Assembly: GCF_006345805.1 (NCBI RefSeq)
Contig: NC_043006.1
Span: forward strand, 37,200,001 to 37,264,000
DNA: 64,000 nucleotides
Reading direction: 5' to 3'
DNA from: Octopus sinensis
Lineage: Eukaryota
Position numbers and translations under genes: made by a program. This document shows, one piece after another, positions 2,806-42,719 of the stretch. Below the pieces are notes generated by a model, which saw only the letters and a list, made by a program, of their open reading frames with translations, ran no database searches and was not told the origin of the DNA. Positions within the stretch are counted from its first letter, which is position 1, and each line of letters begins with the position of its first letter.

Positions 2806-3910
2806 CATTCTTTATTTATGTTTTGTTAAAAGTATTCTTTTCAAAAGTCTACAAACACAGCCAGACTGAAATAATTAATGCATTATTCCAGGAGTGAATA
2901 AAAAAATTCGCAAAGTTCAGGAGAAAGGCCCCTGAAATACTAAGAGCGGCCCCCATATATGAATTCTAATGGCGCTGGGGTTCACTTGCCACCAGGCAAG
3001 CTGGCAACCTGGCCAGTCCGCCACTGTCTGCATGTGTTACTCAACTTGCTAGGAATAGCTGTCAATTTTGCATGGAAGTACACTCTGCCGTGTTAGAAAG
3101 GAAATATAAGACGATGGAGACTACGAAATTATTGGCACAGGGTTGTGGTGATGGAGGAGGAGGAGACAGCGTGGAAAAACAAAAGAGTTAATTGGTTAAA
3201 ATTACAAAAAACTTCCATATTTTAAAGTTCATGATTTTTTTTTATTATTAGTTTCTCTGGAAAATGGTTGTGGTTTTCTTTTCGTAATTGGCATACAAAA
3301 CAACATCATCTGTAAAAAATTTTCAATAAAATCGGTGACTGTGATTCAAATGACAAAGATCAAAAGCAAGAAACAAAAAAAAAAAAAAATGGGATGGTCA
3401 CAGCTAGAATGCTCTTGATCACCGTGGTCAGTTTGACCAATATTGAATATTGAACTTAGGTCAAGCAACAAAACAAAAGTAAAAATCTATTCCGACAGGA
3501 AATTATAAATAAGTCACTTCCTGCTGACGTTCTTTTGTGTGCGCATGTTGACTCACACACGTACACTTACATACACATACACATACATACACACACACAT
3601 AAAGACATACACACACACATACATACATACATACATACATACATACATACATACATACATACATACATACATACATAAATACATACATATGCACACAAAC
3701 ATACGTTACTGCAAATTTACGCTCATAAACTAGCATACACGCATGCGCGCAGAAGCCTCTAAGTACTCACTCCACCAGCTTGAAATATCTGTTGAATCTC
3801 CCTTTAATCTCAACGTACCATCTTAGCTGCCTGAGAATAGAGATGTGAAACTAATAACTGTGAAATGTGAAGTCTCATCTTAAAATTGAATACACACACG
3901 CACACATATA

Positions 3911-17162: not shown

Positions 17163-17963
17163 CTTTGTGGGTGTACAATTCTCCGTCCTTATTATATTAA
17201 TTACAGAGAGAGAAAGAGAGAGAGAATGATGAATTCTTCTTATAGCTAGTCTTTATTACGCTGACTGAAACCTCTATAAAAATTTCGGAGCGTAAGTTAG
17301 AAAACATCCATGGGTTAGAAACGAATCCCTGTTTAAAAAATGTCAAAATTATCTGAAAGTTACTTTTTTATTATCTTACTAAATTTCCCTTCCCTTCTTT
17401 AGAAAACTGTCTTATTAATTTCAATTAATTTTATTATTATCGTCTTCCATATTTTTCAAGGTTCTTTTTTAAGTATTAACACTGCGTTCTTGAAGCGTTA
17501 TGTCGAGGGATTATTTTTTTTAACATAGACTCCTTCTAGCCTGATGAGGAAAGCTTAATATTTGCATTAATCTAAAGATTGTGTATATCAATGTACACAT
17601 GTAAGCAAGTTACTTATAAAATATAACAAAATAAATTATCTTTTAAGTTGTGAAACAATTTGTTGTTATATAAGAATTTCAAATGGCTAAATAAAATTCC
17701 ATCATACTATATTTCTCTCATTGAAGTGTGGACGGCATTTTCTGTTGCTCCTTCGCCGTTCTCAAAAATAGCGTTCGTAATACTTTTTCTCGTTCGGCGT
17801 AACAGCCCTTCTTGTCTTGTTATTCTCCTTGTCCTGTCTTTTACTGTTTATATTTTGTACTGTCGTTACTGTCCTGTTTTTGTTACCATTTTTACCCCTC
17901 CGCAAAAAGATCTCAAATTTTATTTAATTTGCTTTTCGCGAGAAGGAAAGTTTCTATTGAAGA

Positions 17964-18024
17964 TGCGTATCGCCTTCACCTTCGAAACGCAGAGTAGATG
18001 AAACCATGGCGACTGAAGAAGGGG
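17964..18024 (+). ncRNA. Putative non-circularly permuted hammerhead ribozyme, copy 1
   Basis: TGCG-TA-TCGCC ... CCTTC-GAAA-CGCA ... GGCGA-CTGAAGA-AGGGG. Confidence 0.6.
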
Positions 18025-18234
18025 AATTTTCCTTGTATTATTTGTCCTGTACTCTATTTTTGTTGTTGTTTAAGAAAAATGTCAAGTTCCTTGGTTTTGT
18101 GTTTATGTTTTCGTTTCTCATTGTGTTCGACGTTTTTTTTGGTGTCCTGTACCCATATATGCGTGTATATATACATGTTGAGGTAGGTATGTACATATAT
18201 GTATGTATATATGCATATGTTTTATTTATTAATT

Positions 18235-18280
<46 letters not shown>

Positions 18281-18284
18281 TATG

Positions 18285-18316
<32 letters not shown>

Positions 18317-18414
18317 TGTATGTATGTATGTATATATTATATATATACATACATACATACATCATACATATACATACATCATACATACATACATACATAC
18401 ATAAACTACATACA

Positions 18415-18498
<84 letters not shown>

Positions 18499-18679
18499 TC
18501 TCATTTGGTCAAAGTCGTATGACAACCACCGTTATATATATTTTTGTTTATTCATTACTGTTTTCAATTTCGTTTTCGTCTCTTGTATTCACATCCGTCT
18601 TGTGCGTTCACATTCCTGTCTTAACCAAGAAATCTAATGCTTACAGCTTAGTTTTTTTTCTTGGGGCTGGCCGAGTTGG

Positions 18680-18745
18680 AGCAATATCAGAATTGAACAG
18701 CCGAATTGCTATGATGATTCGGTGTCTGACTGAAGATTGAAGGCT
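18680..18745 (+). ncRNA. Putative non-circularly permuted hammerhead, divergent third example (one core A missing)
   Basis: AGCAA-TA-TCAGA ... AGCC-GAA-TTGCT ... TCTGA-CTGAAGA-ttgaa-GGCT. Confidence 0.5.
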
Positions 18746-18862
18746 TCGAATGATTTGTCTGTGTTCCGTGTTCGTCCCTTCCTGTATTTCACGTTCATTA
18801 TATATAAAAACATTCATTCTTATATATATATATATATATATATATGTATACACTGATGTATC

Positions 18863-36496: not shown

Positions 36497-36906
36497 AATA
36501 CAGTTGTATATTTAAGAGATGAAGAATTCTGTACGTTATTTACATTCGACGGATATTTGTCCTCATCTTGTTTGTTGTTAACATAACGTTTCGGCTGATA
36601 TACTCTCCAGCCTTCTTCACGTGTCTTGGGGAAATTTCGAACCTGGATTCTCATTCCTACGGGCATATGGCGTAGTGTTTAAGAGTGCGGGCTACTAACC
36701 CCAAGATTCCGAATTCGATTCCAAGCAGTGACCTGAACAACAAGAACAACAACAACAACAACAACATCGAAAAAATACCGTAGGAATGAAAATCCAGGTT
36801 CGAAATTTTTCCAAGACACCTGAAGAAGGCTGGAGGGTATATCATCCGAAACGTTGTGTTAACAACAAACATGATGAAGACAAATATCTGTCAAATGTAA
36901 ATAATG
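36497..36906 (+). mobile_element. tRNA-headed retroelement with inverted Penelope-like hammerhead repeats, 13-bp TSD
   Basis: TSD TGTATTTCTTTTT at 36484-36496 and 36907-36919; ~128-bp inverted repeat 36533-36662 / 36778-36906; tRNA-like head 36661-36733; (AAC)n linker. Confidence 0.8.
36815..36860 (+). ncRNA. Minimal type I hammerhead ribozyme motif (Penelope-type)
   Basis: GACAC-CTGAAGA-A-GGCTG..CATCC-GAAA-CG-TT-GTGTT. The inverted copy has a perfect CAGCC stem II but a C3G core change. Confidence 0.7.
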
Positions 36907-40115: not shown

Positions 40116-42658
40116 AGCAGCCACTTAGAACCTCTATTCAACTGATGGTGGTCATGATAATGATGATGATGATGATGATAACGATGATAGTAGCAGGGAT
40201 GGTTGACGATGGTGATGATGATGATGATGATGCAGTGGTAGTGACGATGCAGTGGTGGTGATAATGATGATACTAATGATAACGATGATGATGTTGGTGA
40301 TGATTGTGATTCTGAAAACGACGGCGACTATGATGGCGATAGTAATGGTGGTGGTGGTGAAGCACTTGACCCTGATAATCTAATGAAAATTCAAGTTCAA
40401 CTCTCGCATAGCAGATAGATAAAGTAGGAGTGGGGGTTGGTGGGTGGAACTGACCTTAAATCTGATTGGTTAAAAGCTTTCGCCTTCATAACTTTGGTCA
40501 ACTCAGCTAAGTATTTCCACTTGATAAAGATGGCGTTCTTGATATTAATTAGTTTTTACAATCATTGGCTGCTCAACCAGGTTCTATGGTTAGCCTCTTC
40601 TCCCATTCTCTCATGGTGTGTGCATGTGCATATGTGTGTGTGATTGAGTGAGTGTCCTTGTGTGTGTAGTGGAGGCGCAATAGTCCAGTGGCTTGGGCAG
40701 CGGACTCGCGTTTGTAGGATCGCGGTTTCGATTCCCAGACAGGGCGTTGTGAATGTTTATCGAGCGAAAACATCTAAAGCTCCACGAGGGGTGGTGGTAG
40801 TGGTGGCGAACCTTGCTGTACTCTTTCACCGCATCATTCTCTCACTCTTTCTTCCTGTTTCTGTTGTACCTGTATTTCAAAGGGCCAGCCTTGTCGCACT
40901 CTGTGTCACGCTGAATCTCCCTGAGAACTACGTTAAGGGTCCACGTGTCTGTGGAGTGCTCAGCCACTTGCACGTTAATTTCACGAGCAGGCTGTTCTGT
41001 TGATCGGTTCAACTGGAACCCTCGTCGTCGTAACCGACGGGGTGCCACGATGACGACGATGTATCTACATGCATTTGCATATGTATGGCTGTTTGTATGA
41101 GTGTGTGTGTATATGTAGGGCTGGATTCAGGTCAACTTTAGCCCTTATCACATCCTAATAAGGGTTCCCCTCTCTACCTTTCCATTGTTTAAGCAACAAC
41201 GCACTAAGGCCCGAAAATTGTAGGAGAGGTAGCTAGTTGAGTTCATCGATACCAGTGATCGGCTGGTGGCTATTTTATTGACCCCGAAAAAATGAAAGGC
41301 AAAGTCGACCTCGGCGGCATTTGAACCCAGAGCGTACAGACCAACGAACTACCACTAAACATGTTGTCTGACGTGTTAATGACTCTGCTTTGCTCGTTGC
41401 TTTCTTTTAAGACATAATAAATGCCAAATGTGAAATAATAGATTAAATGTTCAGTTTTCTTCTATGCCATCCCTCAGATCAATCTCTCACAACCATCTAT
41501 AATAATAAAAGCGAAATTCTGTCAGTCTGTCTGGGACCTCTGTATCTCAGCCTACACTTGCTCTACGTAGACATAGTATACCTTTTTGGAATCATGATAA
41601 TCCCAGGATTGAAAATCTGCCCTTCATTTGGTCCTTGCACACCCAGCATTGGGATCTCATCTAAAATCATTTGGGTTGCTATTTCTAACAGATAAAGCTT
41701 GGCTGATCCACGCCATCTTGTCAGAGGACGTCAATGATCAAAAGGGAGATAAATAACATTCGCTTCGTTAATTTTATGTGGAGATAAGAACTTCGGGACA
41801 AATTGGCCAACAATTGGAATTCAACTTGGGACTAGAACAATAGAATGACTGTACTACAGAATTACTTCTCATCCATCCTTAACTTCTGATCAAACACCAC
41901 CAGGACATAGAGTCATTGTAGATGTATTATAGTCATGCTGTTTAGTTCACTTTAGTTTTGGGCCACAGGCCCTATTAGCCCTCCATAGGAGCTAGTTTAA
42001 AAGTTCACATGGAGTGTGGCTTTTAAGTTAGTATTAAATCTAGCTTGTTATTTAAAGGTTATTTATTCAACACAAAAGTATCCATAAGTTATGTAACTTA
42101 TTTTCTTAGAATGGAGGAAATGAGAAAAATTACAAATTTTCTATACATCTCAATTTATTAAAAAAAACAAAAAAAACTTTTAATTTATCTATTTGCAACT
42201 ATGGTAAAAAAAATCCTTGTGGTGTCCTGGACACTGAAAAATAGTCCTTTTTATGTCTCTGGAACTGAAAACTTCCCTGTGGTACTTTTATTTTCTATGG
42301 TATTTCTTAAAAGTGTGTGCTAACTCTTTGAAGATATATTTCTTTTAATGAGGGACACAATTGCCACAGATACTGGTGGAGCACTTTATCTATATAAATT
42401 TATCAGACCTTGTGCCACAAGTAGAAACAAATATATACAAATTTTAATGGGAAACAATGAAAGATTAAATTGCTTTCTACTTTCTATGGTATCTGAAACT
42501 GTGTACTAACTTTTTGAAAATATGATCTTTTTTTGCTTCATGGAGTATTTTAATAATTTTTCAAATCTCAGATAGCTCTCATACGATAATCATGGCCCAA
42601 CCTCATTCTAGGACCTCAAAACAGTTGTGAGATTTGTCTGTGCAACATAGTATGAAGT

Positions 42659-42719
42659 TGCGTCTTGTCCCTACCATCGAAATGTGGGGTAGATAAAACG
42701 AGGGACAACTGATGAAGGG
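42659..42719 (+). ncRNA. Putative non-circularly permuted hammerhead ribozyme, copy 2 (same repeat family as copy 1)
   Basis: TGCG-TC-TTGTCCCT ... CCATC-GAAA-TGTG ... AGGGACAA-CTGATGA-AGGG; 8-bp stem I. Confidence 0.55.

Follow-up and report, generated by a model that had tools for sequence, protein, structure and literature searches.

Hammerhead ribozymes with permuted blocks were treated by Eckert et al. (2023) on the assumption of three unbroken blocks, which gives six orders (PMC10085705). Type SGC was described from metatranscriptomes only, and one GCS candidate is the sole permuted form reported there from the genome of a known organism. Type CSG was published from two metagenomic sequences of no known context. 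According to the same authors, an insertion of more than 1-2 nt between CUGAnGA and stem II is not known. For the hammerheads of Penelope-like elements, a dimeric mode of action across neighbouring tandem repeats has been proposed (Cervera and de la Pena, 2014; PMC4209133). Penelope-like insertions have a fixed 3' end and scattered 5' ends, and include partial tandems and inverted copies (PMC8557442). The Naiad elements were reported to be without canonical hammerheads, with "core" and "half core" matches being flagged, and from the failed hammerhead searches a ribozyme was argued to be dispensable for them (Craig et al., 2021; PMC8557442). In the literature searched, chiefly open-access papers and part of the 54 Naiad consensus records, we found neither a description of the layout reported below nor one of permuted hammerheads from Naiads or cephalopods, and no report of an active hammerhead without the A9-G10.1 link.

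The locus lies in a stretch of 64,000 nucleotides from Octopus sinensis (the window). Judged from sequence, and with a probability of about 0.78, it belongs to a Penelope-like repeat and is damaged; intact copies of this repeat would fold as a hammerhead opened between A9 and G10.1 (the split-core layout) and likely cut themselves. This layout has in common with types SGC and CSG the handedness of the block order, the pseudoknotted stems, a short linker between stems I and II and a fourth helix. In contrast to both types, a stem II strand and a strand of the fourth helix (helix X) precede the cut site and do not follow CUGAnGA, so that block C would be split. Moving the stem II-X segment of SGC from the end to the front yields the split-core layout with the same non-circular ring, and so does moving X'-stem I-CUGAnGA of CSG from the front to the end. 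A further difference to SGC (PMC10085705) is the setting, here an animal genome with hundreds to thousands of copies tied to a retrotransposon. The type I hammerheads of Penelope-like pseudo-LTRs are likewise found near the element 3' end; the minimal type I form differs by its circular order, minimal stem III, lack of helix X and an A9 joined to stem II (PMC4209133).

The window copy and its repeat family

On re-reading the window, all letters that the original prediction had quoted for positions 18680-18745 were present, and stems I (TCAGA/TCTGA) and III were confirmed as drawn there. A fourth helix (18670-76 with 18717-23) had been overlooked in that scheme. The T-rich block between (TA)n tracts, correctly noticed, is a 5'-truncated copy of a repeat family, F3. 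The features of this copy are:

18494..18825, plus strand: 5'-truncated F3 copy, unit positions 370-705, between (TA)n tracts; 97.6% to the L007 unit (blastn)
18665..18669, plus strand: predicted stem II 5' strand GGCTG, first base G10.1; five Watson-Crick pairs with CAGCC at 18698-702, compensatory changes across families
18670..18676, plus strand: helix X 5' strand, pairs with 18717-23; covaries and was found by unconstrained folding of an intact copy
18680..18684, plus strand: stem III strand 5' of the cut site, AGCAA, one A fewer than most copies
18685..18686, plus strand: U16.1-A17 (TA), putative cut site by analogy with hammerheads
18687..18691, plus strand: stem I 3' strand TCAGA, pairs with 18725-29
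18698..18702, plus strand: stem II 3' strand CAGCC, last base C11.1; pairs with 18665-69
18703..18705, plus strand: GAA, against GAAA in the remaining family copies; defect of the window copy as assembled
18706..18710, plus strand: stem III strand 3' of GAAA, TTGCT, one T short
18717..18723, plus strand: helix X 3' strand, pairs with 18670-76
18725..18729, plus strand: stem I 5' strand TCTGA, pairs with 18687-91
18730..18736, plus strand: CUGAAGA core (CTGAAGA), intact in 50/50 sampled F3 copies; A9 unlinked to G10.1
18742..18751, plus strand: downstream look-alike of the stem II and helix X strands, including GGCT at 18742-45; an alternative fold is possible, and as stem II it is not conserved

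The predicted entry of the ribozyme is the stem II 5' strand at 18665..18669, and cleavage is predicted 3' of 18686 by analogy with known hammerheads. Compared with its family, the window copy is one A and one T short at GAAA, and a further A is missing from the other strand of stem III. It differs from the L007 unit by two substitutions and several indels of one base each; three of the indels shorten A/T runs inside the motif. It is a damaged copy of a young repeat and defective as assembled. All three missing bases shorten homopolymers and might be assembly errors, and the earlier verdict that the copy is probably dead holds for the assembled letters and no further. Contigs of three sequencing runs show the family form, none of them being assignable to the window locus.

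The missing A is restored in the family. Among 50 distinct copies in 30 loci (L001-L030), which were the best-scoring ones and not a random sample, CUGAAGA is present in 50/50 and GAAA in 49/50, the window copy being the sole exception. All 40 scored matches of the F3 search (1649 candidates) reach at least 98%, the window itself being among them; this membership in a repeat family bears out the original view that the motif is not a chance arrangement. The intact 46-letter stretch from GAAA to CUGAAGA has 724 exact copies in the genome, compared to 0 for a reversed-pattern control, and the GAA form of the window occurs once.

F3 units are about 710 bp long, non-coding, and occur as single truncated copies, head-to-tail arrays (for example a tandem array at L007) and inverted pairs. 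By hand count, arrays hold 34 of the first 100 listed copies; most sampled insertions are single copies. In 60 insertions drawn from the first 100 listed places of the 724-copy search, the 3' end falls at unit position 690-710 and the 5' ends are scattered from 1 to 571. Short upstream partial copies seemed overrepresented, but this was an artefact of taking the most upstream match. The ends, partial tandems and inverted copies match the insertion pattern of Penelope-like elements (PMC8557442), and F3 is therefore regarded as a Penelope-like repeat. The ~710-nt unit would be a non-autonomous element that a Penelope-like reverse transcriptase (RT) copies into (TA)n.

Head-to-tail units, a fixed 3' end, 5' truncation and microsatellite targets are traits that F3 has in common with non-autonomous Penelope-like elements and retrozymes. 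Animal non-LTR retrozymes are likewise non-coding and arranged head-to-tail with one hammerhead per unit (PMC7229834; bioRxiv 10.64898/2026.07.22.740005), and were likewise proposed as non-autonomous Penelope-like derivatives (PMC7229834; Li et al., 2026). However, they are defined by type I hammerheads and their circular RNA has been demonstrated, whereas each F3 unit has the split-core form instead of a type I hammerhead. Among the data sets listed as containing the sequence, none is recorded as RNA, and unit-length contigs of F3 are compatible equally with tandem DNA or circles. The non-coding unit holds neither GIY-YIG, DKA motif nor RT open reading frame (ORF) of an autonomous Naiad. Among 90 loci, F3 was never found joined to an RT gene, and the wider-spaced F3 pairs (L160-L162) contain no autonomous element. 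At three different loci (L021, L025, L160) F3 copies adjoin the same zinc-knuckle, LINE-ORF1-like sequence, and the two may form a composite that spread together.

Pairing of stem II and helix X

Two further copies in the window belong to other families:

17942..18019, plus strand: F1, same layout, intact; upstream stem II strand at 17942-46; 3699 candidates
42654..42715, plus strand: F2 copy, 5'-truncated just before the cut-site block and without upstream stem II and X strands

That the architecture recurs in a second sequence family, as had been proposed, is supported by F3 beside F1. The match to the copy at 17964 stands for the block order; the linker, said to be 14 nt in both, measures 14 nt in the window copy and 16 nt at 17964, so that the likeness is approximate only. 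The two copies are adjacent on the same strand within window positions 17600-18850, with a (TA)n/(TATG)n tract between them, an arrangement to be expected of two families that target such tracts.

Stem II had originally been drawn as AGCC/GGCT, with GGCT downstream of the core. This pairing needs a 5-nt insertion after CUGAAGA and is not maintained in related families, and a longer partner is found upstream (GGCTG, 18665-18669). With the partner upstream, the chain is open between A9 and G10.1. In F3 the strand of the fourth helix follows directly 3' of this partner. We compared pairing in 18 representatives, which are mutually related. The upstream partner forms 5-6 bp with a lower duplex energy than the downstream one in 18/18, and pairs 1-5 are Watson-Crick in 18/18, counts that are partly circular because the strand was chosen by pairing and the scan for three octopus-type families required it. 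G10.1-C11.1 is found in 17/18, with A-U in the remaining one, and positions 2-5 each show three or four pair types. Downstream, a candidate without insertion pairs in 3-9/18 per position, and in 7-11/18 with a 1-nt insertion. Even if up to 6 inserted bases are allowed, no more than 2 bp form in 7/18. Within 0-2 nt of insertion, 4 bp are reached in only 4/18, all with G-U pairs; F3 gives 1 bp, and F7 lacks any downstream partner.

Since downstream pairing is poor and the upstream pairing is seen in 18/18, the topology is not published type SGC but one opened inside the core. The permuted topology of the original prediction thus holds for the S-G-C order and not for the type, and of its three pairings stems I and III persist in related families, the downstream stem II does not. 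Blocks S, G and C occur in the order of type SGC, and a fourth helix joins stems I and II, with its 5' strand upstream; an unbroken block C with the stem II strand 0-2 nt after CUGAnGA is missing. On sequence grounds we class the motif as hammerhead-like in its presumed working and outside type SGC as defined. A type SGC ribozyme would use GGCU after CUGAAGA as stem II behind a 5-nt insertion and the next UCGAAU for the fourth helix, and in F3 four Watson-Crick pairs plus a 6-bp helix are indeed possible, with weaker downstream look-alikes in F1, F2, F4, F5 and F6. Against this, F3 needs those 5 nt after A9, F1 and F2 give only G-U-rich stems, and across families the insertions needed range from 1 to 6 nt and differ, pairing elsewhere being G-U rich or absent. 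Together with the 7/18 and 18/18 counts above, and with no insertion of more than 1-2 nt known for that type in the text of Eckert et al. (PMC10085705), this makes a published-type SGC ribozyme very unlikely. Pairing of the 5' flank with the tail after A9 into a closing helix was also considered and rejected, as it is not general (duplex energies +2.9 to -8.8).

Helix X measures 4-11 bp in 18/18 representatives, its register being unsure in F4 and F6, and is the counterpart of the stem I-II "interaction" helix of SGC and CSG ribozymes. In shuffled upstream sequence, an upstream stem II plus helix X arises with a chance of 1-28% per representative. Compensatory changes occur in all four predicted helices, and stems I, II and III abut the core with covariation. 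Intact copies hold every conserved hammerhead base, arranged as putative stem II strand, helix X, cut site, GAAA, X partner and CUGAnGA. The U16.1-A15.1 pair is present in 18/18 representatives, this pair being a requirement of the scan. A strict scan of the examined loci matched only repeat families with the same layout, and added F1b, F6 and F7.

Helix X and stem III fold as a rod of 9-25 bp with few unpaired bases, and the intact F3 copy folds as this X/III rod without constraint. With a program that cannot form pseudoknots, the F3 motif does not reach a significant folding z-score (-0.68). Types I, II and III have a circular block order and match Rfam, compared to the order S-G-C found here. 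Rfam hammerhead families gave 0 matches at gathering score in 20 loci and none at E up to 10 on the intact F3 copy; on the whole window no hammerhead is among the 150 of 247 matches listed, which are microsatellite-driven.

Occurrence in Naiad elements

A pattern taken from the 3' end of an Octopus Naiad consensus was found at 285 places of the genome (family F5), with 0 in the control, and the F5 end matches the displayed 3' ends of two Octopus Naiad consensus records (PMC8557442). In 15/30 loci an RT-thumb match is followed, 444-1358 bp further 3', by the F5 motif. The best RT remnant (P0002) gave a weak RVT_1 match, and its homologues carry an N-terminal GIY-YIG and a DKA motif. F5 shows the features of an autonomous Naiad only as broken remnants, and an intact Naiad ORF was not found in the genome, the longest open frame being 421 aa among at least 52 matches. 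At a Naiad 3' end in L200 (minus strand, 5163, 5395 and 5646), three F5 motifs stand in tandem about 240 bp apart.

Other published Naiad ends were inspected by eye. A number of them show stems I and III in S-G-C order and have no stem II partner after CUGAnGA; the partner is found upstream, and directly behind it is a strand that can pair with the bases preceding stem I. Among the 54 Naiad consensus records, seen in part and with names inferred from their order, we assign the split-core layout to three Acropora, two Octopus and three unnamed records, and partly to two more; the displayed ends of a spider record and several nematode records appear to be CSG. We read the published "core" and "half core" matches as probable complete split-core or CSG hammerheads. 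The N-terminal GIY-YIG, DKA motif, (TA)n targets, partial tandems and inverted copies are likewise described for Naiads (PMC8557442).

Metagenomic Naiad loci, chosen by RT similarity alone (the best 80 of 401), were scanned on both strands. Stems I and III in S-G-C order were found in 10/80 sense and 0/80 antisense, every such locus being listed, and five shuffles of the 80 loci gave 0 full matches and 1 partial match. In all 10 sense loci the upstream stem II measures 5-6 bp and helix X 6-11 bp; the product of the chances over these loci is about 1e-10 (calculated by hand, the loci being related). The remaining 70/80 loci lack the motif. Chance pairing in an AT-rich repeat would fit a folding energy that by itself is indistinct from shuffles, but is effectively refuted by the sense-antisense difference and the shuffles; the strict-scan matches, all of which are repeat-family members with the same layout, also speak against it, and its probability is close to nil.

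In the 10 carriers, 48-586 nt separate the longest ORF from the motif behind it (hand subtraction). The DKA motif is present in 10/10, an endonuclease match upstream of RT in 8/10 and an ORF of at least 898 aa in 7/10, so that the features of an autonomous Naiad (N-terminal GIY-YIG, DKA motif, RT ORF) are found among the carriers. In a quick RT tree, a branch with support 100 has all motif-bearing rows on the same side. One change each explains the 11 split-core rows and the 3 CSG rows, 49 rows with neither form make up a separate branch, and the row of the octopus genome itself is long-branched. The motif is missing in 18/29 rows of the split-core branch and hence not universal there; 8 of these have tails below 400 nt and 8 above 600 nt, counted from the estimated ORF end. 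Complete type-CSG hammerheads are predicted 3' of Naiad RT in L243 (~2900-3010), L246 (~3450-3570) and L256 (~1670-1790), all on the plus strand. A GCS-order match in L280 is AT-rich, lies inside an ORF and was treated as chance. In 17 loci of the hammerhead-less branch, no ribozyme family in Rfam matched at E up to 0.5. In 6/17 (L228, L247, L253, L266, L268, L273), SECIS-like Rfam matches that stay under the cut-off are found 3' of the Naiad ORFs, in agreement with published Naiad selenoproteins. A search of viral contigs gave no Naiad relative.

We put forward tentatively, at somewhat below even odds, that a large Naiad branch in several animal phyla carries an active hammerhead rod, opened at A9/G10.1, that completes the active site of the next copy, and that other Naiads carry CSG. 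If true, non-circular hammerheads would be common in animal genomes and the failed hammerhead searches on Naiads would be explained. Non-circular permutations, so far from metatranscriptomes and metagenomes of unknown hosts, would gain an animal-genome context at high copy number. The list of layouts would also grow beyond the six of Eckert et al., in which the CUGAnGA block is assumed uninterrupted, and the A9-G10.1 backbone link would be dispensable.

Strand geometry, predicted cleavage and further families

In hammerheads the sheared G12-A9 pair stacks on stem II. The catalytic core of the split-core form would be that of the hammerhead, with G12-A9 stacking on the G10.1-C11.1 pair without a backbone link. 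Natural hammerheads tolerate one unpaired base in the step from A9 to stem II (PMC4209133), which makes A9-G10.1 a plausible link to open. Helix X and stem III would form one rod, the loop of which bears the cut site and GAAA. This loop would be bound by a 5' arm (the stem II strand) and a 3' arm (the stem I strand plus CUGAnGA).

Since arms and loop lie at opposite ends of the rod, the arms of one tandem copy would bind the loop of the next. From this geometry we give about even odds to a head-to-tail dimer. The frequent tandem arrangement of F3 copies and the published dimer proposal for Penelope hammerheads (PMC4209133) point the same way. Binding between copies would cause no strain. Multimeric transcripts would then be cut to unit length and a single copy would be stable; such a ribozyme would count copies, being cut as a multimer and stable as a monomer, and an obligate two-molecule head-to-tail ribozyme would be useful as an RNA engineering part.

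The same split-core fold might also cut as a monomer, with helix X bending back along stems II and III and a few end pairs fraying. The base of the rod would then have to come into contact with the loop of the same molecule; in the ring so closed, X is shorter than stems II and III together. Several members have 4-6 nt linkers and a short stem III, most sampled insertions are single copies, and SGC members without a linker between helix I and stem III, as well as validated SGC constructs that cut co-transcriptionally, have been described (Eckert et al., PMC10085705). On the other hand, several members have only 0-2 spare bases on one side of the rod, and in L208, L210, L211, L218 and L223, where this is combined with rods of 14-25 bp, the helix ring would be strained. 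We consider cutting as a monomer possible, though less likely than not.

Among the 60 F3 insertions, no 5'-end peak was seen at the predicted cut: none ends at unit position 566 and two end at 571, and 58/60 read through the intact site. Uncut or multimeric templates, or re-ligated circles, would be in keeping with this absence, which speaks against a simple role in setting RNA ends. The absence would also suit a hammerhead-derived, non-catalytic binding or priming signal for the protein of the element, in which the open link abolished cutting or cutting needs the protein. A Poseidon hammerhead cut only with the protein of its element and was dispensable for insertion in vitro (PMC11167929). 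This alternative is nevertheless improbable, considering the catalytic bases of the metagenomic members. Allowing two core mismatches gave no extra sense match and one antisense match, and 10/10 sense cores are perfect. None of the listed members has G as the base at the cut, which is a condition of the strict scan but not of the two-mismatch scan. A split-core hammerhead with probable self-cleavage is retained as the preferred reading.

Further families with the same layout (F4, F6, F7 and F1b) were met by chance in flanking sequence, at L099 +522, L063 +2451, L149 +2254 and L037 +226, respectively, and the genome therefore probably holds many more. F7 has 295 candidates. In the tails of F5, F6, F7, F1 and F2, and at window positions 18742-18751, the helix X 3' strand has a second possible partner, located after CUGAnGA, and the F7 tail can pair with the core itself. 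This second partner is possibly an off-state switch; it was not seen in the metagenomic members inspected.

Window positions 36812-36860 (plus strand) resemble a type I minimal hammerhead (CUGAAGA, stem II, GAAA, CG-UU) of a further Penelope-like family. A Neptune-like element next to an F1 copy was rejected as carrier of the permuted motif, which occurs only in unrelated inserts there. This element (L092-L121) has 17,287 candidates and open frames of up to 1009 aa, and is a candidate mover of the short families. Its tail shows, by eye, a minimal hammerhead of type I in which position 3 is U.
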